A model generated the notes under the pieces. The model saw only the letters and a list, made by a program, of their open reading frames with translations, ran no database searches and was not told where the DNA came from. This document shows, one piece after another, positions 3,073 to 56,232 of a stretch of DNA of 64,000 nt. The stretch covers positions 857,908 through 921,907 of the forward strand of contig OZ246408.1 in NCBI GenBank assembly GCA_965231015.1. The letters are read 5' to 3'. Position 1 is the stretch's first letter, and each line of letters begins with the position of its first letter. Source of the DNA: an uncultured Gammaproteobacteria bacterium (GTDB lineage: Bacteria; Patescibacteriota; Patescibacteriia; UBA9934; CAZDDW01). Position numbers and translations under genes: made by a program.

Positions 3073-5112
3073 CTACATCTGATCAATCAATGACTTAAGT
3101 TCTGATTCGACCTGCTCGATATCTTTCTGAATTTCATCCAGTGATCGTGGGGCTTCATACTTGTAGAAGAATCGTGTTACCGGGATTTCGTAGCCAACTT
3201 TTCCGACTTTATTATCCTTGTGATCCTTTTTACTTTCATCAATCCATGCATCAGCAACATAAGGTTTTACTTCTTCTTCAAAATAGTCGTTAACATCTTG
3301 ATTCAGTGGAACATTTTCCGTATCGCGTAAACTCGAATCAGCTTGCTGCTTGTCTTGGCTATCCAAAAAGACATCCGCTGTTTCATCATGCTCGGAAAGA
3401 GCATTAACGATTGCCTTTTTAAGCGGAGCGGGTAATTTGAGATCGTTATTTTTCCATATACCCTCAAGCAATTTTATGTATTCATTTCCATTCTTAAATA
3501 ACTCAGTGGACATCTCGCTAAGTGCTGAAATGATGCTGTCTTGAAGCTTAATTCCGGCTTCAATTTCTTCATTGCCTTTATCGCCTTTTTTCTTCGAAGT
3601 AGCCAGCTTTTGAAAAACCTGCTCCTCTTTTAGCGCTTCAACACGTTCTGGAGTTACCTGAAAATTGAGCCTTAGTGGGCGTTCGATTGTAATCTGACGG
3701 TATCCAAAACCTTCGTTGTTGAAGATTTTTGAGTATTCATTCTCTTCAAACTTTGAATATAGCTCAACAATCTTTTTTCTGTCTTCTTCGGTGATTTCAT
3801 TGCGTTTGTTGCCAAGACTTTTGCGCATCTTTTCAGACATGCCTCGAGCGTCAATGATTTGCACCTTGCCTTTGCGCTCGTCAGGCTTTCGGTTTGTTAT
3901 AAACCAGAGATAGGTTGGAATACCTGTATTGAAGAAAAGTTGATCTGGCAAGGCAATGATAGTCTCTAGCCAATCGTTCTCTAGAATCCAGCGTCGGATT
4001 TCACTTTCTCCGCTACCCGCATCTCCAGTGAAGAGTGGTGACCCGTTGAAGACAATGCCCAGACGCGATCCGCCTTCGTGCTCGGGTCGCATTTTTGAAA
4101 TGAGGTGTTGTAGGAATAACAACTGACCATCAGAAACCCGCGGTGTACCAGCTCCAAAACGACCGGCGTATCCACGTTCTTCTTCACGCTCGATTACTTG
4201 CTTGTCTTTTTTCCAATCTATACCAAACGGAGGGTTGGTGAGCATGTAGTCAAAGTCTTTACTGAAAAACTGATCATTAGAGAGGGTGGAGGCGATGGAA
4301 TGATCCTTTTCTCCGCCTTTGATATTATTCGGATCTTCACCCTTAATCAGCATATCCGCCTTACACATGGCATAGGTAACCGGGTTCAATTCTTGACCGT
4401 AAAGATAAATGTCAGCGTTACTTTTGATATCTTTCTTAATATGATCTTTGGCAACCGAGAGCATTCCACCAGTACCACAGGCACAGTCGTAAATGGTTTT
4501 AATCAGATGTTCTTTTTGAAGTTTTTTTTGGTCAGGGGCGAAGAGGACTTCAACCATGACTTTAATAACATCTCGTGGAGTGTAATGTTCTCCCGCGGTT
4601 TCGTTAGATTGTTCGGCAAACTTTCGAATAAGCTCTTCGAAGATTGAACCCATCTCATGATTGTCCACTCGGTCCGGGTGAAGATCAACCTTGTTGATGA
4701 TTTTGATAATTTCGTAAAGCAGATTACCACCTTCTAGGCGATCTAGCTGGCGGTCAAAGTCAAACTTCTCAATGATGTCAGTGATGTTTTCGCTAAACTT
4801 GCTCAGATAATCACGAAAGTTTTGTGCAATACCCGATGGATCCTCAAGTAAATTATTAAAATCATATTCTGAGATATTATAAAATCCAACTCCACTGGTT
4901 GCTTTCAGGATTGGGTCAAGATCATTAATTTCTCCACTGAGCTCGTTGTATTGCTCAAGTACAGCCTTCTTGGTTGGTGCAAGCAACAAATCCAAACGTC
5001 GAATCACGACCAAAGGGAGAATTACATCTTGGTACTCGTGCTGCTTCCAGCCACCTCGAAGAATGTCAGCGATATTCCAAATTAATTGTGCTTTTTCTTT
5101 GAAGTTGTTCAT
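3073..5112 (-). CDS. hsdM: Type I R-M N6-adenine DNA methyltransferase subunit HsdM (679 aa, with C-terminal extension)
   Basis: SAM-binding motif I DCACGTGGML and catalytic motif IV NPPFG; HsdM-N-like N-terminus; followed by hsdS and hsdR. Confidence 0.9.
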   Translation of the reverse strand: MNNFKEKAQLIWNIADILRGGWKQHEYQDVILPLVVIRRLDLLLAPTKKAVLEQYNELSGEINDLDPILKATSGVGFYNISEYDFNNLLEDPSGIAQNFRDYLSKFSENITDIIEKFDFDRQLDRLEGGNLLYEIIKIINKVDLHPDRVDNHEMGSIFEELIRKFAEQSNETAGEHYTPRDVIKVMVEVLFAPDQKKLQKEHLIKTIYDCACGTGGMLSVAKDHIKKDIKSNADIYLYGQELNPVTYAMCKADMLIKGEDPNNIKGGEKDHSIASTLSNDQFFSKDFDYMLTNPPFGIDWKKDKQVIEREEERGYAGRFGAGTPRVSDGQLLFLQHLISKMRPEHEGGSRLGIVFNGSPLFTGDAGSGESEIRRWILENDWLETIIALPDQLFFNTGIPTYLWFITNRKPDERKGKVQIIDARGMSEKMRKSLGNKRNEITEEDRKKIVELYSKFEENEYSKIFNNEGFGYRQITIERPLRLNFQVTPERVEALKEEQVFQKLATSKKKGDKGNEEIEAGIKLQDSIISALSEMSTELFKNGNEYIKLLEGIWKNNDLKLPAPLKKAIVNALSEHDETADVFLDSQDKQQADSSLRDTENVPLNQDVNDYFEEEVKPYVADAWIDESKKDHKDNKVGKVGYEIPVTRFFYKYEAPRSLDEIQKDIEQVESELKSLIDQM

Positions 5113-14511: not shown

Positions 14512-14580
14512 ATACTGTCAAAGAAGCAACGAAGCAACGAAGCAAGCTTGTTTCTTTGTTTCGTTGTTTTATTGATTGAA

Positions 14581-15991: not shown

Positions 15992-16058
15992 ATGAAGCTA
16001 GTTTATACTAAAAAACAAGGTCTTTCAACCTCGTTTTTATCATTTGACATTTATCATT

Positions 16059-23731: not shown

Positions 23732-24574
23732 TTAGCGGCGCTTCTTCTTACGTCTTTCAATAATAAGCGCATCAGACGGTTTTTTACGGCGGGTTTTTAC
23801 TCCGAGAGCCGGCTTACCGGTTGGAGTCTTAGGGTGCTTCATACCAATAGCATTTGCACCTTCACCACCACCGTGGGGGTGGTCTACCGGGTTCATTACC
23901 TTACCACGAACAGTAGGTCGAAAACCGCGGTGACGCATTCTACCAGCTTTACCCCAGCGAATCAAACGTCGGTCAGGATTAGAGGTCTGACCAATGGTAG
24001 CCATACATGTTTTTGGCACCATCCGCACTTCTCCACTTGGGAGCTTCAAGGTTGCGTTCTTTCCTTCAACAGCCATAATCTGGGCTGTGGTACCGGCACC
24101 GCGCACCATCTGGCCACCCTTCCCTGGCTCAATCTCGATGTTGTAAACACCGATACCGGCAGGGATGTGCTCTAAGGCAAAACGGTTTCCAAGTTTAATC
24201 TCGCCTTTCTTTTGGCTAGACACAACTTCATCACCGGCCTTGAGCCCGATTGGGGCCACCATATAGCGCTTTTCACCATCTGCATAGTGCAAGAGGGCGA
24301 TGCGGGCGCCACGGCCTGGATCATACTGAATCTCAACCACCTTGGCTGGGACATCAAATTTATCTCGCTTAAAATCGACCACACGAACTTGTCGTTTAGC
24401 TCCGCCGCCACGGTGGCGTACGGTAATCTTCCCCTGGTTGTTACGTCCAGCCTTTTGCTTTTTTGATTTCAAAAGCTTTTTCACAGGCTTAGCCTTTGAA
24501 TCCACGTCCACAAAGGCGTCCACACTTGAAATGCGACGACCCGGGGTAGTTGGTTTGTAGCGTTTAACTGGCAT
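23732..24574 (-). CDS. rplB: 50S ribosomal protein L2 (start at ATG 24574; ORF-track GTG at 24592 less likely)
   Basis: [14 protein letters not shown] start; GHPHGGGEG motif. Confidence 0.95.
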
Positions 24575-24642
24575 AATTTTGGCTCGTCGCACGTCGCACG
24601 TCGTTTAGCAACGACGGGCGATTTGCTACGGGCGATTTTCTT
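24575..24642 (-). repeat. (GACGTGC)n heptamer repeat plus conserved hairpin module (CGUCGUU-loop-AACGACG, GCGAUUUGC) between rplW and rplB
   Basis: Transcript sense reads CGACGUGCGACGUGCGACGAG; same module at 26371-26440; heptamer also at 55679-55706. Confidence 0.5.
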
Positions 24643-25098
24643 TTATACTCCTTCGTAAACATCAATCTTAGTTCCTTTTGGCAAAGTCACAATGGCTTTT
24701 TTCCAATCGTTCTGACGACCTTGCACTCGACCAAAGCGAACCTTCTTTCCCTTATAATTGGCAATATTAACCTTGACCGGCTGAACGCCATACATGGCCT
24801 TGATTGCCTGAGCCACCTGAACCTGATTTGCATTCCTCTTAACCACGAATACGTACTGTCCGGCATCCGCTAAAACGGCTGACTTTTCAGTTACATGAGG
24901 GCGGATAATCACATTCTCCAAACCTTCGATCATGGTTCCTTTTGGTCGAATTGAACCCTCAGCCTTCTCGGTTTTCTTAGCTTTTTTTGCCTTCTTGACC
25001 TTATCAGTCTTATCAGACTTCTTGGTATTCTCAGCCTTCTTGCCCTCAGCTACCTCTTGCTCTTTTTGCTTGCGAAATTTGTCGAAAAATCCAGCCAT
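24643..25098 (-). CDS. rplW: 50S ribosomal protein L23 with Lys-rich N-terminal extension
   Basis: L23 core at C-terminus (IIRPHVTEKSAVL...); start taken at MAGFFDKF overlapping rplD stop. Confidence 0.9.
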   Translation of the reverse strand: MAGFFDKFRKQKEQEVAEGKKAENTKKSDKTDKVKKAKKAKKTEKAEGSIRPKGTMIEGLENVIIRPHVTEKSAVLADAGQYVFVVKRNANQVQVAQAIKAMYGVQPVKVNIANYKGKKVRFGRVQGRQNDWKKAIVTLPKGTKIDVYEGV

Positions 25099-25099
25099 A

Positions 25100-25738
25100 T
25101 TACTTAGTAGCTTTATAGGTTTCGTTAACGAGAGCAGCTGCATCCTTACTGATAAGAATGTAGTCGTGAGAAAGAACGTCGACTACGTTCAAACTCTTGG
25201 CTCCGATCGTGCTAAGCTTGGGGATGTTGCGAGCGGCTCGCTTCACCACCTGATTAGCCGGATCAATAACCACCAAGGTTTTTTTGCCTGCGTTTGGTAA
25301 TTTACCAAGTAAATTAGCAAAAACTTTGGTCTTGGCCTCGGACAGCTCCAAAGTATCCACGACCACAAATCGGTCATGAGCCACCTTGTCACTCAAGGTC
25401 ATGGCCAAAGCTTTTCGCTTGGCTTTCTTGTTAATTTTACGAGAAAAATTCTGATTCTTACTAGGTCCAAAAGTTACTCCACCACTTCGCCACAAAGGAG
25501 AACGAATGGTACCGGCTCGAGCTCGGCCAGTTCCCTTCTGACGCCATGGCTTACGACCACCGCCTCGAACCTCTGATCGGTCTTTGGCGTGAGCAATAGC
25601 CTGACGAGCGTTGGCCTGTTGAATCACCACTGCTTCGTGAACCAAATTTGGATCAACTACAACTTCAAACATATCCTTAGCCAGTTCCATTTCACCGGTT
25701 GCCTCACCTTTCTGATTGTAGACTTTTACTTTTGCCAT
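25100..25738 (-). CDS. rplD: 50S ribosomal protein L4
   Basis: L4 family sequence, operon position. Confidence 0.95.
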   Translation of the reverse strand: MAKVKVYNQKGEATGEMELAKDMFEVVVDPNLVHEAVVIQQANARQAIAHAKDRSEVRGGGRKPWRQKGTGRARAGTIRSPLWRSGGVTFGPSKNQNFSRKINKKAKRKALAMTLSDKVAHDRFVVVDTLELSEAKTKVFANLLGKLPNAGKKTLVVIDPANQVVKRAARNIPKLSTIGAKSLNVVDVLSHDYILISKDAAALVNETYKATK

Positions 25739-25743
25739 ATTAT

Positions 25744-26370
25744 TTAGTTACCCCAAATATTCTTACCGGTTCGGGAACGAACAAAAACTAAACTGTTTCG
25801 TGCCCCTGGAACAGCACCTTTTATCGCCAAAGTGTTGGTTTTTGGATCAATCGCGACAACCTCTAAATTCTTGACAGTTACTCGATCATTTCCCATACGA
25901 CCTGGCATACGAGTTCCTTTCAAAACTCGCTGTGGACCCTGAGCTCCAATGGAACCTGGCATTCGTAACTGATCTTTGTGACCGTGAGATGCAGGACTTC
26001 CATGAAAACCGTGTCGCTTCACAACACCTTGAAAACCCTTTCCTTTTGAAGTACCGACAATGTCTACCTTATCACCTTCTTCAAACAGATTGACTTTAAT
26101 TTTGTCTCCCGGTTTTAGATCCGTTTCATCAACTCTGAACTCACGAGTTAAACCTACCGGACCAAACTCCTTAGCCCGTGATACCTGAGCTTTGTTGACC
26201 TTTTTGGTTTCACCGAATCCAACCTGAACCGCTGAATATCCGTCTTTGTCTTTAGTTCGCACATCAGTAACAACACATGGGCCAGCCTGAATCAAGGTAA
26301 CCGGAATTACGGTACCGTCTTCCTTGAAGATCTGACTCATTTCGAGTTTTTTACCAATGATGAATTTCAT
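25744..26370 (-). CDS. rplC: 50S ribosomal protein L3 (start at ATG 26370)
   Basis: MKFIIGKKLEMSQIF start typical of L3. Confidence 0.95.
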   Translation of the reverse strand: MKFIIGKKLEMSQIFKEDGTVIPVTLIQAGPCVVTDVRTKDKDGYSAVQVGFGETKKVNKAQVSRAKEFGPVGLTREFRVDETDLKPGDKIKVNLFEEGDKVDIVGTSKGKGFQGVVKRHGFHGSPASHGHKDQLRMPGSIGAQGPQRVLKGTRMPGRMGNDRVTVKNLEVVAIDPKTNTLAIKGAVPGARNSLVFVRSRTGKNIWGN

Positions 26371-26440
26371 AAGAGATCGCACGTGGCACGTCGTTCAAAA
26401 CGACGAGCGATTTGCGACAAGCGACGTGCTTTTTCCAGCT
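26371..26440 (-). repeat. second copy of heptamer-repeat + hairpin module immediately upstream of rplC start
   Basis: Transcript sense GCACGUCGCUUGUCGCAAAUCGCUCGUCGUUUUGAACGACGUGCCACGUGC; aligns with 24575-24642 element. Confidence 0.5.
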
Positions 26441-26782
26441 TCTTAACACAAAAGCCAGAGATCGTTTTACAGAAATTTATAAAACAGTCTCTGACCCCAT
26501 GCGGCTATTGGGTTGCTGATGTGATTTATTGAAAACTTGTCTCCTACCCAATCTCTAGAAGCTGCAGGAAGGTTTTCGCGACTTATGCCCGCCCGTAATT
26601 CACGCGATCTTTCTTCTTGGTTCTAAGGTTGGTGTTTCTTTGGTGTTTCTACTGATAATTCTTTCAAAATTCTTCACCCTACAAGGCGTGGGGTAACAAA
26701 TTCGGAGATGTACTTAATGGTACATTGACGGATTTGTGGGGCCCCGCAACGAAGTAGGTGGAGTAATTTCGGGAGAATTGTA

Positions 26783-27169
26783 TTACATTTTTATTTCTAC
26801 GTCAACCCCTGCCGGTAAATTCAAACTCATCAATGAATCAACTGTTTTTTCGCTTGGGTTAACGATATCGATCAAACGCTTGTGCACACGCATTTCGTAC
26901 TGATCACGACTGGTTTTGTGAACGAAGGTAGACCGGTTCACGGTATACTTACGCTTTTCAGTTGGTAATGGAATTGGACCCAAAACCTTAGCCCCGGTTC
27001 GCTCAGCAGTTTTGATAATGGTTGCTGTAGCCTGGTCGATGATCTTGTGGTCGTAAGCACGAATCTTAATTCGAATTCGCTGCTTGGTTTTGTCTTCAGT
27101 TTTGTTGGTTGCTTTGTCAGTCACAAATTTCTTCGAAAGAACAGGTTCAATGTTAGCGAGGCGAGCCAA
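26783..27169 (-). CDS. rpsJ: 30S ribosomal protein S10 with ~28-aa N-terminal extension (start codon uncertain; TTG at 27167-27169 in ORF track)
   Basis: [31 protein letters not shown] core; no in-frame ATG near the canonical start. Confidence 0.9.
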
Positions 27170-34245: not shown

Positions 34246-34283
34246 ATTGAGTAATTTTCAATTTACTAAGTTTCAATTTTCAA

Positions 34284-34748
34284 TTATCTTGCAAAGTGGG
34301 CAAACGCTCGGTTGGCCTCAGCCATCCTCTGCACGTCTTCTTTCTTTTTAACAGCGTCGCCTTCGTTGTTAGCAGCAGCCATGAGTTCATCAGCTAATCT
34401 TTCTGCCATAGGCCGACCACTTTTTGATCGAGCCGCAGACAGGATCCAACGATAGGCTAAGGTGAGCCGACGCTCACCCCGCACCGGGTGCGGAATCTGA
34501 TAGTTAGCTCCACCAACTCGACGTGAACGAACCTCAAGGGCCGGTCCCACGTTCTTAATGGCGGCCTCGAAGACTTCGACCGGATCTTTTTTGGTTTTAT
34601 CCGCAATAATATCAAAACAATTATAGACCACCTGACGAGCAGTGGTCTTTTTTCCGTCATACATGACGTAATTAATCAGCTTGGCAATTTCCAGATTGCC
34701 AAACTTTGGATCCGGATTTAACCGGCGTTTAGAGGCACGTTTTCCACG
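34284..34748 (-). CDS. rpsG: 30S ribosomal protein S7
   Basis: [18 protein letters not shown] start, S7 profile. Confidence 0.95.
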
Positions 34749-42516: not shown

Positions 42517-42581
42517 GAATGTCAAATTGATAAATATCAAATGTCAAAAAAGGCGGGGTGCAAAACCTGTCTTTTTGGTTT

Positions 42582-47483: not shown

Positions 47484-49877
47484 TTATAGTACGAAGTTAA
47501 TCATGCGACCGGGAACGTAGACCGTCTTTTTGACCTGCTTCCCTTCTAAGTATTTTTGAACGTTAGTGTCAGCCTGGGCGCGTTCAGATGCTTCTTCTTC
47601 AGGCAAATCTGGGGCAACCTCAATAGTGGCACGCAACTTGCCATTGACTTGCACCGGTAAATTCACGAGTTCGTCTTTGGCGAGTTCTTCATCAAACTCT
47701 GGCCAGGGTTGTTCGGTCACCGAATTTGGGTGTCCGGTCTTTTCCCAGAGTTCCTCGGCAATGTGTGGTGCAAATGGGTTTAACAAAACAATCAGGCCAT
47801 CAAAAACTTCAGCTGGTACAGCCTCAGCCTTTTGCATTTCGTTTACGAGAATCATCAACGCCGAGATGGCCGTATTAAACTTGGTTTCTTCAATATCCTT
47901 ACCGACTTTCTTGATAGTCTTGTGCAGCAAGCGGACTAAATCTTTGTTTTCAACTTCGTCTGAAACGTCACTTTGCAAATTCCAAACTTTTTCCAAAAAG
48001 CGTCGCACTCCAACTACTCCGTTAGTGCTCCAAGGAATGGCTTCTGAAAACGGACCCATAAACATTTCATAAACCCGAAGTGTATCAGCGCCATACTGCT
48101 CAACTACTTCATCCGGGTTTACCACATTTCCCCAAGACTTACTCATCTTGCGACCGTCTTCTGCTAATACCAGACCGTGACTTGTTCGTTTGGCATACGG
48201 CTCAGTAGTTGGCACAAGACCTCGATCAAACAAAAACTTGTTCCAAAAACGTGAGTACAACAAGTGTAAAGTTGTGTGCTCCATTCCACCATTATACCAA
48301 TCAACCGGCATCCAGTACTTGAGCTTGTCGCTCGCCGCAAATTGCACGTCGTTCTTTGGATCACAGTAACGCAAGAAGTACCAGCTTGATCCGGCCCAGT
48401 TTGGCATGGTGTCGGTTTCGCGTTCTGCTTCCCCACCGCACTCTGGACACGTTGTCTTCACCCAATCGTCAATTGCGGCCAGCGGCGACTCGCCAGAATC
48501 GGTCGGTTCATACTTTTCAACCTCAGGCAATTCAACTGGCAACTGATCATCCGGCACAGCCACCCAACCACATTTGTCACAATGCACGAGTGGAATCGGC
48601 TCACCCCAGTAGCGCTGGCGGGAGAACACCCAATCACGCAATTTAAAATTTGTTTCAGCCTGACCGAGTTTATTTTTTTCTAACCAATCAATGATTTTCT
48701 TCTTGGCTTCTCCAACATTTTGACCATCTAACATTTCTGAGTGTACCAACTTCCCGTCCCCAATATAAGCTTCCTTTTCGATGTTCCCTCCTGAGATTAC
48801 TTCTCGAATCGGTAAATCAAATTTCTTAGCAAACTCATAATCACGCTCATCATGTGCCGGCACAGCCATAATCGCTCCGGTTCCATACCCCATCATGACA
48901 TAATCCGCCACCCACACCGGAATCTTTTCTCCATTCACCGGATTCACCGCATACGCCCCGGTGAACACTCCGGTCTTTTCTTTAGTATCATCCCCACGAT
49001 CGATCTCGGTCATAGCAGCAGCTTTTTGACGGTACTGTCTCACTTCATCGCGGTGCTCATTTCTCGTAATCTTGTCCAAGAGTCCGTGCTCTGGAGCCAG
49101 CACCATGTAGGTTGCGCCAAATAATGTATCAGGGCGAGTAGTAAAGACTTCGATCTGTTGATTCGAGTCAGCAACTTCAAACTTTACTCGAGCTCCTTCA
49201 TTCCGCCCGATCCAATTTATTTGTTGAGCCTTGATCTTATCCAGGTAATCAAGTCCATCCAAGTCTTCGATCAATCTGTCCGCGTACTTGGTAATCGCGA
49301 TCATCCATTGTTCCTTATCCCGCTTTTCTACTTCGCCGTGACACCGTTCACACTTTCCATCCACTACTTCTTCATTGGCCAGTCCAATCTTACAAGACAG
49401 ACACCAATTAATTGGTTGACCGGCTTTGTAAGCCAGTCCGGCTTTGAAAAACTGAATGAATTGCCACTGCGTCCATTTATAATAATCCGGATCAGTGGTA
49501 TTTACTTCGCGTGACCAATCAAAAGAAATTCCGAGCGACTTCAACTGTCGTCGAAAAGTATCGATATTTTCACGTGTCACTTCTTGAGGCTTGCGACCGG
49601 TTTTGATAGCAAAGTTTTCGGTTGGCAAACCGAAGGCATCCCAACCAATTGGATACAAAACGTTGTATCCCTCCATGCGGCGTTTGCGGGCTACCACATC
49701 AAGTGCTGAATAACTGCGCGGGTGTCCTACATGAAGTCCGGCTCCGGACGGATACGGAAACTCAATCAAACAAAAAAACTTAGGCTTCTTTGAGCCATCC
49801 TCGGCTTGATAAAAATTCTTTTCCTCCCAAAACTTCTGCCACTTGGGCTCAATTTCATGATGATTATATCTGTCCAT
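47484..49877 (-). CDS. leuS: leucyl-tRNA synthetase
   Basis: HVGH (HIGH) and KMSKS motifs; N-terminal IEPKWQKFWEEKNFY. Confidence 0.95.
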   Translation of the reverse strand: MDRYNHHEIEPKWQKFWEEKNFYQAEDGSKKPKFFCLIEFPYPSGAGLHVGHPRSYSALDVVARKRRMEGYNVLYPIGWDAFGLPTENFAIKTGRKPQEVTRENIDTFRRQLKSLGISFDWSREVNTTDPDYYKWTQWQFIQFFKAGLAYKAGQPINWCLSCKIGLANEEVVDGKCERCHGEVEKRDKEQWMIAITKYADRLIEDLDGLDYLDKIKAQQINWIGRNEGARVKFEVADSNQQIEVFTTRPDTLFGATYMVLAPEHGLLDKITRNEHRDEVRQYRQKAAAMTEIDRGDDTKEKTGVFTGAYAVNPVNGEKIPVWVADYVMMGYGTGAIMAVPAHDERDYEFAKKFDLPIREVISGGNIEKEAYIGDGKLVHSEMLDGQNVGEAKKKIIDWLEKNKLGQAETNFKLRDWVFSRQRYWGEPIPLVHCDKCGWVAVPDDQLPVELPEVEKYEPTDSGESPLAAIDDWVKTTCPECGGEAERETDTMPNWAGSSWYFLRYCDPKNDVQFAASDKLKYWMPVDWYNGGMEHTTLHLLYSRFWNKFLFDRGLVPTTEPYAKRTSHGLVLAEDGRKMSKSWGNVVNPDEVVEQYGADTLRVYEMFMGPFSEAIPWSTNGVVGVRRFLEKVWNLQSDVSDEVENKDLVRLLHKTIKKVGKDIEETKFNTAISALMILVNEMQKAEAVPAEVFDGLIVLLNPFAPHIAEELWEKTGHPNSVTEQPWPEFDEELAKDELVNLPVQVNGKLRATIEVAPDLPEEEASERAQADTNVQKYLEGKQVKKTVYVPGRMINFVL

Positions 49878-55365: not shown

Positions 55366-55405
55366 ATACTTTATACTTTATACTTTATACTTAATACTTT
55401 ATACT
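55366..55405. repeat. tandem heptamer repeat (ATACTTT)x5.5 immediately upstream of truB ATG
   Basis: atacttt atacttt atacttt atactta atacttt atact. Confidence 0.6.
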
Positions 55406-55413
55406 GCTCACAT

Positions 55414-56109
55414 ATGCAAGGCTTTATTTTAATTGACAAACCAACTGACTGGACCAGCCACGATGTTGTGAATCGAGTTCGAAAGCTGACCGGCGAACGC
55501 AAAGTCGGCCACGCCGGCACCCTGGATCCGTTTGCGACCGGGTTGCTGATTATTGGGGTTGGAAAAAAATACACTAAACAACTAGGTGAACTGATTGGGC
55601 TCAACAAAGAATACGAGGCAACGTTTGTTCTTGGTGCCACGAGCGCTACCGATGACCCGGAAGGACCAATCACTGAACGACGTGCGACGTGCGACGTGCG
55701 ACGTGCCCAAATCGAGGAGGCCATGAAAAAATACATGGGCGAAATCGACCAAGTTCCTCCGCGTTTTGCTGCCATTAAAAAAGACGGCAAGAAGTTATAC
55801 GAAAAAGCTCGAGCTGGAGAAGAATTTGAACCTGAATCTCGCAAGGTCAGAGTCGATGAATATGAGCTTCTCAAAACATCAGACGATAATCACAAATTAA
55901 AAGTCCGGATCAAATGTGGATCCGGGACCTATATTCGAGCTTTAGCGCGAGACTTAGGAAACGATCTTGGAGTCGGCGGTTATGTAAGTGAGCTTAGACG
56001 AACTAGGGTGGGAGACTTTGATGTTTCCGATTCAACACCCCTTGAGGAACTCGCCCCTAACAACATCGAGTCAAAAATTTTTCAAAAAGAAGAAGCGGGA
56101 TCCCGGTAG
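55414..56109 (+). CDS. truB: tRNA pseudouridine(55) synthase TruB, containing an in-frame (GACGTGC)x4 repeat
   Basis: MQGFILIDKPTDWTSHDVVNRVRKL...GHAGTLDP catalytic Asp motif; repeat encodes ERRATCDVRRAQ. Confidence 0.9.
   Translation: MQGFILIDKPTDWTSHDVVNRVRKLTGERKVGHAGTLDPFATGLLIIGVGKKYTKQLGELIGLNKEYEATFVLGATSATDDPEGPITERRATCDVRRAQIEEAMKKYMGEIDQVPPRFAAIKKDGKKLYEKARAGEEFEPESRKVRVDEYELLKTSDDNHKLKVRIKCGSGTYIRALARDLGNDLGVGGYVSELRRTRVGDFDVSDSTPLEELAPNNIESKIFQKEEAGSR
55679..55706 (+). repeat. (GACGTGC)x4 heptamer repeat inside truB coding sequence
   Basis: same heptamer family as rplB/rplC upstream modules, in transcript sense. Confidence 0.6.
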
Positions 56110-56128: not shown

Positions 56129-56232
56129 TGGTGAGGCCAGATGGAATCGAACCATCGACCGCTGGGGCTCCTCTGGACCATCTAGAACTTGACGACCCAT
56201 ACCCAGTGCTCTACCAGCTGAGCTATAGCCTC
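56129..56232 (-). tRNA. tRNA gene (104 nt, CCA-encoded) with ~28-nt insertion/intron-like segment in the anticodon-loop region; isotype undetermined
   Basis: acceptor GAGGCUA/UGGCCUC, U8A9, D-arm GCUC-AGCUGGUA-GAGC, anticodon stem CUGGG/CCCAG separated by 35 nt instead of 7, variable CGGUC, T-arm GAUGG-UUCGAUU-CCAUC, discriminator A + CCA. Confidence 0.55.

Follow-up and report, generated by a model that had tools for sequence, protein, structure and literature searches.

A palindromic heptamer-repeat module at ribosomal-protein gene junctions of a Patescibacteria genome

In the intergenic DNA of bacteria, simple sequence repeats (SSRs) with a heptameric unit are over-represented, for which slippage of the polymerase was put forward as the cause, according to a passage of PMC4692102 that cites Mrazek 2007. 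One such repeat, TAACTGA, was described from marine Beggiatoaceae and is also present in cyanobacteria and Bacteroidetes; its function is unknown (MacGregor, 2015; PMC4679880). Here, we analyze a stretch of 64,000 nt from a Patescibacteria genome (contig OZ246408.1, positions 857,908 to 921,907; hereafter, the window), in which a hairpin-forming module with the 7-nt unit GACGTGC lies upstream of the ribosomal-protein genes rplB and rplC. The module resembles the TAACTGA repeats in several respects, as these are likewise built of 7-nt units, stand in 2-6 tandem copies, are mostly intergenic and "forward" in orientation, and end a few nucleotides before a start codon (PMC4679880). Moreover, the genes downstream of TAACTGA usually lack a ribosome-binding site, and the repeats are found in ribosomal-protein operons, including positions before L3 and fusA, with a few copies inside open reading frames (ORFs; PMC4679880). 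Our collective results suggest that the module with the GACGTGC unit is a hairpin-forming heptamer SSR, young and specific to its lineage, that is tolerated in polycistronic mRNA, a reading to which we assign a probability of roughly 0.6. It is one instance of a class of 7-8-nt tandem arrays, often arranged as inverted pairs, which both give rise to the spacers between cistrons in Patescibacteria operons and fill them.

Architecture and recurrence of the module

The window has a GC content of 45.9%, and all within-genome counts given below refer to its 64 kb. Its TruB and L2 proteins find their best matches in metagenome-assembled genomes (MAGs) of "Candidatus Uhrbacteria" and of the "Patescibacteria group", and its minus strand carries the S10/spc ribosomal-protein operon; Pfam supports S10, L3, L4, L23, L2, TruB, LeuRS, EF-G, RuvX and Map. 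Two paralogous intergenic copies of the module, ~55-68 nt long, occupy the rplW-rplB gap (copy 1) and the gap upstream of rplC (copy 2; Table 1). Read in the mRNA sense, the module consists of four degenerate heptamers, a loop of 3-4 nt and two to three GACGTGC units, which together form an imperfect palindrome of 19-24 bp; it begins at the stop codon upstream and ends 7-8 nt short of the ATG that follows. Both arms carry a 7-nt periodicity and the whole is a quasi-palindrome, in which the degenerate heptamers of the 5' arm (GCAAATC, GCCCGTC and similar) face the GACGTGC units of the 3' arm.

Copy 1 reads AAGAAAATCGCCCGTAGCAAATCGCCCGTCGTT-GCTA-AACGACGTGCGACGTGCGACGAGCCAAAATT in the mRNA sense, followed by the ATG at 24574. 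Its 5' arm comprises the four units GAAAATC, GCCCGTA, GCAAATC and GCCCGTC; these are followed by CGTCGTT, the loop GCTA and AACGACG, then by GACGTGC, GACGTGC and GACGAGC, and finally by CAAAATT, which separates the last heptamer from the rplB ATG. The corresponding inverted repeat (I2) has 24-nt arms (24582-24605 and 24610-24633) that are 79% complementary around a 4-nt loop, and Tandem Repeats Finder (TRF) reports period 7 at 24585-24603 (2.7 copies, 100% match). Copy 2 reads GCACGTCGCTTGTCGCAAATCGCTCGTCGTT-TTG-AACGACGTGCCACGTGCGA, then TCTCTT and the rplC ATG at 26370; its units are GCACGTC, GCTTGTC, GCAAATC and GCTCGTC, then GTT-TTG-AAC, and then GACGTGC, CACGTGC and GA. Its inverted repeat (I4) has 19-nt arms, also 79% complementary, around a 3-nt loop, and the direct repeats D2 and D8 connect copy 2 with copy 1. 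In general form, the module core is GCAAATCGCYCGTCGTT-N3-4-AACGACGTGC.

The first-pass annotation of this DNA had described repeat-and-hairpin loci upstream of rplB and rplC together with a four-unit in-frame array inside truB, and had placed the end of the module near the start codon; our analysis confirmed these coordinates and sequences as well as the proximity to the ATG. The hairpin needs a correction: its CGTCGTT/AACGACG stem is real but was described too short, since the 5' arm consists of four degenerate heptamers opposite the GACGTGC units and the true arms hence measure 24 and 19 nt. A separate "GCGAUUUGC box" turned out to be a plus-strand reading; in the mRNA sense it is GCAAAUCGC, a unit belonging to the 5' arm.

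Recurrence of the module is beyond chance expectation, which bears out the earlier claim that it is not random simple sequence. With up to two mismatches, the double heptamer GACGTGCGACGTGC has 8 matches in the window where 0.30 would be expected, a count attained by not one of 100 shuffles. Moreover, the non-repeat parts of 17-18 nt, namely the hairpin CGTCGTT-N3/4-AACGACG and the 17-mer GCAAATCGCCCGTCGTT, are confined to the module loci (expected, 0-0.15). Copies 1 and 2 have in common a core of ~45 nt that is ~92% identical, non-repeat parts included; its left part agrees at 16 of 17 positions and its right part at 18 of 19. Because of this common core, the two intergenic copies are paralogues rather than independent slippage products. 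A chance likeness of low-complexity sequence might have been suspected, the units being short and CG-rich words being visually prominent in a genome of 46% GC; the shuffle counts and the locus-restricted non-repeat parts rule out such an origin, to which we give practically no credence.

The unit also occurs in coding DNA. The truB array, ERRATCDVRRAQ, is detected by TRF at 55678-55706 (period 7, 4.1 copies, 100% match) and sits in a variable loop of TruB, where the protein length is unchanged: a protein alignment with 15 homologues revealed no indel. At the DNA level, 35 nt stand in place of 35 nt of unrelated sequence in the relative L326; the patch starts with AACGA, which is also present in the relative. 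Over the array region, the window's TruB reads ITERRATCDVRRAQIEE, compared with IKINETARELTRDEIEA in a 77%-identical homologue. Judged from these alignments, the truB array resembles a patch that conversion or a template switch put in place without altering the length, or else in-situ homogenisation; it does not resemble an insertion. In leuS, the stretch AACGACGTGCAATTTGCGGCGAGC shares 20 of its 24 nt with the 3' arm of copy 1. It likewise shows no indel relative to Thermus thermophilus LeuRS, and the LeuRS domains are confirmed; its AAC-GAC encodes a conserved N-D pair. Since these codons are conserved, the match is partly due to coding constraint, and the stretch is a possible remnant of the module.

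The arrays are open in all reading frames, contain in-frame GTG and TTG codons and lack stops. ORF finders therefore extend rplB (GTG at 24592), rplC (GTG at 26382) and truB (55150); the arrays thus mislead gene callers, and all three genes can be called with spurious N-terminal extensions. A public TruB record (P0001) has 319 aa, compared with ~231 aa in homologues.

Table 1. Positions of the module copies, of the genes around them and of other spacer arrays, numbered along the window
Feature	Position	Strand	Description
Module copy 1	24575..24642	minus (mRNA strand)	Whole rplW-rplB spacer, by sequence
Module copy 2	26377..26429	minus	6 nt 5' of the rplC ATG (26370); downstream of a conserved leader-like RNA
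rplB (L2)	23732..24574	minus	Downstream of copy 1; Pfam Ribosomal_L2_N and Ribosomal_L2_C; N-terminus MPVKRYKP as in homologues
rplW (L23)	24643..25143	minus	Upstream of copy 1; TAA stop at 24643-24645; Pfam Ribosomal_L23
rplC (L3)	25744..26370	minus	Downstream of copy 2; Pfam Ribosomal_L3, translation
truB array	55676..55706	plus	AAC and a perfect (GACGTGC)x4 (55679-55706), read as (E)RRATCDVRRA
truB gene	55414-56109	plus	Pfam TruB
leuS, possible degenerate half-copy	48330..48353	minus	AAC GACGTGC AATTTGC GGCGAGC, read as KNDVQFAAS(D)
map-ruvX spacer, 67 nt	14514..14580	minus	Inverted octamers (AACGAAAC/AAAGAAAC), AAGCTT, (GCTTCGTT)n; ends 5 nt before the ATG
Pre-fusA array	34246..34283	minus	Direct (ATTGAAA)n heptamers filling the spacer; EF-G domains downstream
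Pre-truB array	55366..55405	plus	(ATACTTT)x5.7; ends 8 nt before the truB ATG; TRF score 73

L23 carries a lysine-rich N-terminal extension of ~70 aa (KKAENTKKSDKTDKVKKAKKAKKTEKAEG), its Pfam domain beginning at residue 77, and this extension is encoded by a degenerate 9-nt periodic repeat (24958-25040, within rplW). A tRNA-Arg(TCT) at 56133-56220 measures 88 nt according to ARAGORN, while its Rfam match spans 101 nt (56132-56232) for a model of 71 positions; it may contain an insertion or intron.

Orthologous junctions and the wider class of spacer arrays

The decisive evidence comes from relatives. In three contigs with 84% L2 identity (L243, L244 and L245), the rplW-rplB gap measures 2-5 nt and the element is absent; in more distant relatives with a measurable junction, most gaps span 1-7 nt and a few span 24-30 nt. 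The ancestral junction was thus tight (1-7 nt), and the 68-nt spacer of the window is derived and is module throughout. In the closest relative (L241/L242), L2 is 94% identical, and the DNA of rplB, rplW, rplC and rplD is 84-87% identical. Its rplW-rplB spacer of 74 nt is only 53% identical to that of the window, and likewise forms a GC-rich hairpin, GCCGT-TTTGT-ACGGC, with 7-mer-like units on its flanks. In front of rplC, the same relative has an unrelated palindrome, (GTTAAAA)n-AATT-(TTTTAAC)n, which is 44% identical to copy 2 and folds with -25.1 kcal/mol (z = -4.9). At both junctions, the hairpin sequences of this relative can hardly be aligned with those of the window, and the element turns over far faster than its flanking genes. 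Its sequence is not conserved; what persists is the place and the architecture, i.e., inverted arrays of short units running from stop to start.

The GACGTGC module is not the only array of this kind. The window contains seven period-7 arrays, compared with 1.9 in Markov simulations, and five of the seven lie in the few percent of the DNA that is intergenic; period 7 is the commonest non-triplet tandem period. In the map-ruvX spacer, whose flanking genes carry the Pfam domains Peptidase_M24 and RuvX, TRF finds period-8 arrays at 14519-14545 and 14548-14569. Upstream of fusA, it finds 4.6 copies of period 7 at 34253-34285 (period-7 autocorrelation, 0.58). The array upstream of truB is kept in position in two relatives (L326, ~40-80; L327, ~1440-1495) with a drifting unit, ATACTTT in the window versus a CCTGTAC-like one in L327. 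The TATACT of this array resembles a -10 box recurring every 7 nt in the divergent infB/truB promoter region. Furthermore, AT-rich heptamers (AATGATA/AATGTCA) stand directly after stop codons at 16036-16058 and 42518-42548, followed by a terminator-like hairpin with a T-tract; they look like a second small repeat family of the window.

A sample of 413 kb of ribosomal-protein operon loci from relatives, with heuristic gene calls, gave a similar picture. Its intergenic arrays have a sharp maximum at the periods 7 and 8, with 30 of period 7, 17 of period 8 and 13 of period 14, compared with 3-9 for each of the periods 9-13, and arrays are present in 28 of the 122 co-directional spacers of at least 40 nt. 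Of 56 arrays, 24 start within 11 nt of the stop codon and 23 end 2-15 nt before the next start. Many arrays are inverted pairs with long hairpin folds, and the unit differs by lineage; such inverted-pair hairpins occur in L252, L274, L287, L156 and L206. In another genome, L156, a marine MAG of 40% GC, the same layout is found in the atp operon, where the GACGAGC/GACGTGC units of one spacer end 6 nt before the atpG ATG. The Patescibacteria genome L206 has five period-7 arrays within 8 kb, including ~4.5 in-frame GACGTGC units inside pgi. In the rplB-rpsS spacer of L274, a GC-rich mini-hairpin of 27 nt (CCCTCGACTTCGCTCGAGGTCTACG) occupies the exact centre of an AT-rich octamer palindrome (~4085-4111), while the near-identical spacer of L275 lacks it; a comparable GC-rich hairpin (GCCCCGTTTGCGGGGT) marks the centre of the L156 array. 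These central mini-hairpins are reminiscent of very small mobile hairpin repeats.

Database scans indicate that the unit as such is not special. Among viral contigs, the GACGTGC 19-mer had one match, compared with 15 and 9 for two control heptamers matched in composition and CpG content, and we therefore rejected the idea of a special cross-phylum motif. A scan of GTDB genomes with the 19-mer CGACGTGCGACGTGCGACG gave at least 119 matches, in GC-rich Acidobacteriota, Actinomycetota and similar groups. Since the unit is not special, these matches reflect how common heptamer arrays are at large where the GC content is high. Among the matches listed, unrelated GC-rich bacteria have (GACGTGC)n arrays of up to 13 units at several loci in each genome, such as in Vicinamibacterales SMAG_U3631, Acidobacteria MGR_bin286 and Porticoccus W117; these arrays often decay to GTGCTGG or GTGCGAG units. 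The orientation of the 127 GTDB arrays among the matches listed, based on rough heuristic gene calls in genomes unrelated to the window, shows a weak overall bias (82 sense-facing versus 73 antisense flanks); the arrays lie next to stop codons by preference, and those abutting them (within 10 nt) are the exception, with 20 sense versus 7 antisense, again among the matches listed. An exact search of JGI metagenomes for the hairpin-module pattern, TCGCNCGTCGTTN{2,6}AACGACGTGC, returned no match, and our search of a library of papers found nothing on this repeat sequence or on heptamer repeats in Patescibacteria.

Origin of the module and alternative explanations

How might such a module arise and be tolerated? 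Under the reading of a young heptamer SSR, the arrays would grow by replication slippage, 7-base units being an over-represented size class in bacterial SSRs. Intrastrand, palindrome-templated strand switching would copy one arm onto the other and thus maintain their complementarity. Starting from a microhomology such as AACGA, gene conversion or a template switch at an ectopic site would carry the module to a second junction, and the same ectopic copying would lay length-preserving patches into tolerant loops of truB and possibly of leuS. Once transcribed, the module would fold into an imperfect hairpin of ~20-25 bp, the base of which would hold the upstream stop and the downstream AUG together, and the downstream cistron would then be translated by termination-coupled initiation. 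Because the genome hardly uses Shine-Dalgarno (SD) sequences, downstream translation probably needs such coupling, together with an A-rich region around the AUG that is free of structure. If a hairpin joins stop and start while leaving 7-8 A/U-rich nt free, it would be tolerated, and the element would be near-neutral or mildly modulatory rather than a dedicated regulator.

Some observations weigh against this reading. We infer slippage and template switching from the architecture of the arrays, and no unit-number polymorphism was seen, as L241 equals L242 and L001 equals the window. The stop/start pairing of copy 1 comes from a single minimum-free-energy prediction, and copy 2, with a fold of -23.6 kcal/mol (z = -0.54), is no better than its shuffles. 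Moreover, the central stem differs between the window and L241 by one compensatory change, T-A to C-G, and this change, together with the repeated occupancy of the same junctions by hairpins in different lineages, could reflect selection for an RNA hairpin.

One alternative, raised by the first-pass annotation as an RNA-level element, is a cis-acting RNA: the transcribed heptamers and the hairpin would offer a binding site to a protein (e.g., S1, a CsrA-like factor, a cold-shock protein, or L2 or L3 itself) or occlude the start, and in this way tune the translation of rplB and rplC. The same role was proposed by MacGregor for the TAACTGA repeats (PMC4679880), and these analogous repeats precede L3, fusA and S1 in Beggiatoaceae (PMC4679880). 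Each intergenic copy of the module stands in the mRNA sense and ends 7-8 nt short of an AUG that lacks an SD sequence, other lineages also have hairpin arrays at these junctions, and the compensatory stem change relative to L241 also fits. In the predicted fold of copy 1 (-29.7 kcal/mol, z = -2.76), the last rplW codons and the stop pair with the rplB start region, including its AUG, through an outer helix of rplW GUAUAA with rplB UUAUGC. However, the sequence is unconserved even in the relative with 94% L2 identity, and the element is absent at 84%. Nor is there a folding advantage of the sense strand or an asymmetry of G-U pairs: sense and antisense fold with -27.1 versus -31.8 kcal/mol for copy 1 and -22.4 versus -22.7 kcal/mol for copy 2, and the mean difference over 12 such spacers is +0.2 kcal/mol. 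Such symmetric Watson-Crick complementarity and equal folding of both strands therefore fit a DNA palindrome, and not selection on one transcript. Rfam gave no match at the modules, neither over the whole window at gathering thresholds nor over 24400-26900 at E<=5; conservation at orthologous sites and structure specific to the transcribed strand, as would mark a conserved cis-regulatory RNA, are both missing. In addition, the GACGTGC unit lies within the reading frame of truB, a place in which a translational operator would be meaningless, and it is not enriched over the control heptamers. The conserved orientation that the first-pass annotation had stressed is true at 3-4 loci; these are too few for significance, the module is quasi-palindromic, and copies 1 and 2 are paralogues of the same operon. 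Given this, we consider a cis-acting RNA role unlikely: of the earlier proposals, that of a miniature repeat is fair in view of the shared core, while relatives, Rfam, strand folding and control heptamers lend no support to a conserved RNA regulator. An effect on the translation of rplB or rplC may exist; nothing in the data requires one.

Another possibility is a mobile element of the REPIN, miniature inverted-repeat transposable element (MITE) or small dispersed repeat (SDR) type, in which a palindromic doublet would be moved in trans by a transposase (e.g., RAYT/IS200-like Y1) to gene junctions and, rarely, in frame into genes. The ~45-nt core at two different junctions, the partial copies in truB and possibly leuS, the palindromic doublet architecture as in REPINs (PMC3116915) and the absence of the module from the orthologous sites of relatives are all compatible with mobility, and the 27-nt mini-hairpin that L274 has and L275 lacks indicates that small insertions do occur in such arrays. 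Nevertheless, neither target-site duplications nor terminal inverted repeats distinct from the array were found, the coding copies are length-preserving and hence not insertions, and the exact scan of JGI metagenomes yielded no further copy of the hairpin module. Lineage-specific units at the same sites fit local generation better than the spread of a single element, and no transposase was identified in the window, which had no exhaustive ORF scan for PF01797. Mobility is therefore quite improbable in our view. We give a similarly low probability to the idea that inverted 7-8-nt stop-to-start arrays are a selected, Patescibacteria-wide intercistronic device, the long hairpin of which would keep stop and start codons close to each other for 70S termination-reinitiation, or would determine how the mRNA is processed or how stable it is. 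In that case, the sequence could churn while the architecture is kept, and the GACGTGC module could be one allele. If the architecture were selected, it would offer a handle on intra-operon translation coupling in SD-poor Patescibacteria.

Further functions were considered at the two junctions. The hairpins are followed by CCAAAAUUAUG and AUCUCUUAUG, without the U-tract of an intrinsic terminator or attenuator, and a promoter/terminator scan gave no excess over expectation; it placed one weak terminator match inside copy 2 (in total, 4 matches versus 2.9 in shuffles). A CRISPR or TIGR-type guide array is not consistent with contiguous 7-mers that lack unique spacers of at least 20 nt. We also tried a split-SD model, in which the hairpin brings a GGAG at the 3' end of rplW near the rplB AUG. 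An SD-like motif (GGAG, GAGG, AGGA or AAGG, 4-14 nt upstream) precedes only 7 of 80 heuristic ORFs, with unrefined start calls, and the GAAGGAG in rplW encodes a conserved YEGV; both points weaken the split-SD model, which was rejected. Most starts in the window either follow A/T-rich sequence or share nucleotides with the stop codon before them.

A different candidate for RNA-level control is present just upstream of copy 2. A conserved non-coding block of ~200 nt (26443-26640, minus strand) separates the rpsJ stop (26783) from copy 2, and its counterparts in relatives are at L241 1361-1562, L243 2085-2285, L245 2083-2272, L246 1289-1505 and L247 1314-1520; with nhmmer, every close relative had a match to the block, and a weak match was left at 76% L2 identity. 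In the RNAalifold prediction, the 5' part folds into nested helices and the 3' part into a hairpin, after which comes UUUUGUGUU, a U-tract; 13 of the 39 pairs of this consensus show compensatory changes. The block has no Rfam match at E<=5. From this model, it looks like a candidate undescribed ribosomal-protein (L3/L4?) leader or attenuator of Uhrbacteria-like Patescibacteria, and it may merit more attention than the heptamer module.

Comparison with described repeat systems

By its features, the module belongs with heptamer SSRs: 7-nt units follow one another head-to-tail at least two to three times, and such arrays are enriched in non-coding DNA. It also shares the layout of the TAACTGA subtype, being forward and ending 7-8 nt before an ATG without SD sequence, with n = 2 and hence no statistical weight. 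The differences from TAACTGA are as clear as the likenesses. GACGTGC is free of stops in all frames, whereas forward TAACTGA has stops in all three. Here, the array is paired with an inverted degenerate array and forms a long hairpin, whereas BOGUAY has one inverted case in 170. Moreover, the window contains only 3-4 copies in 64 kb, the unit differs between related lineages, and the phylum is Patescibacteria.

Cyanobacterial short tandemly repeated repetitive (STRR) sequences are alike in that tandem heptamers are enriched in non-coding DNA, with several unit families per genome and slippage as the suggested cause. Unlike the arrays described here, STRRs are described as long direct arrays, without stop-to-start palindromes and without a composite module copied between junctions. 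In Xanthomonas (GGGAATC) and Nostoc (GGGGA(T/C)T), intergenic heptamer arrays stand between the same genes in related species and differ extensively in length and sequence (Rehm, 2015; PMC4692102), and some of them are inverted and able to form stem-loops (PMC4692102). However, those repeats are G-rich and form quadruplexes (PMC4692102), whereas GACGTGC lacks G-runs and forms a Watson-Crick hairpin. The repetitive extragenic palindromic (REP) sequences and REPINs are short, imperfect, palindromic extragenic doublets with predicted hairpins in single-stranded DNA or mRNA, dispersed in the genome (Bertels and Rainey, 2011; PMC3116915). The module, a hairpin-forming extragenic doublet of inverted short repeats with arms of 24 and 19 nt, is of this shape, but REPINs are not tandem heptamers, number in the hundreds and go together with a RAYT gene (PMC3116915). 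With respect to MITEs, no direct duplication flanks either copy, and the palindrome spans the whole element rather than the termini alone. Rickettsia palindromic elements (RPEs), reportedly described by Ogata et al. in 2000, are said to be 100-150 bp long and to lie in frame in genes, where they lengthen the host protein. The module is similar to RPEs as a palindromic family that is both intergenic and in frame inside housekeeping genes; it differs in that the truB and leuS copies measure 24-31 nt and leave the protein length unchanged, which is not the in-frame insertion seen in RPEs.

Taken together, these comparisons make the present case a modest addition, in which the little-understood heptamer repeats (STRR, TAACTGA, GGGAATC) are extended to the Candidate Phyla Radiation, with a palindromic stop-to-start variant located inside the most conserved operon of the cell. 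The case also shows that streamlined genomes of ~1 Mb go on producing and tolerating structured spacers that evolve fast, and that this extends to repeat patches of unchanged length inside truB. The GACGTGC module extends the known heptamer-repeat phenomenon, and its palindromic stop-to-start arrangement is a notable local flavour of it.

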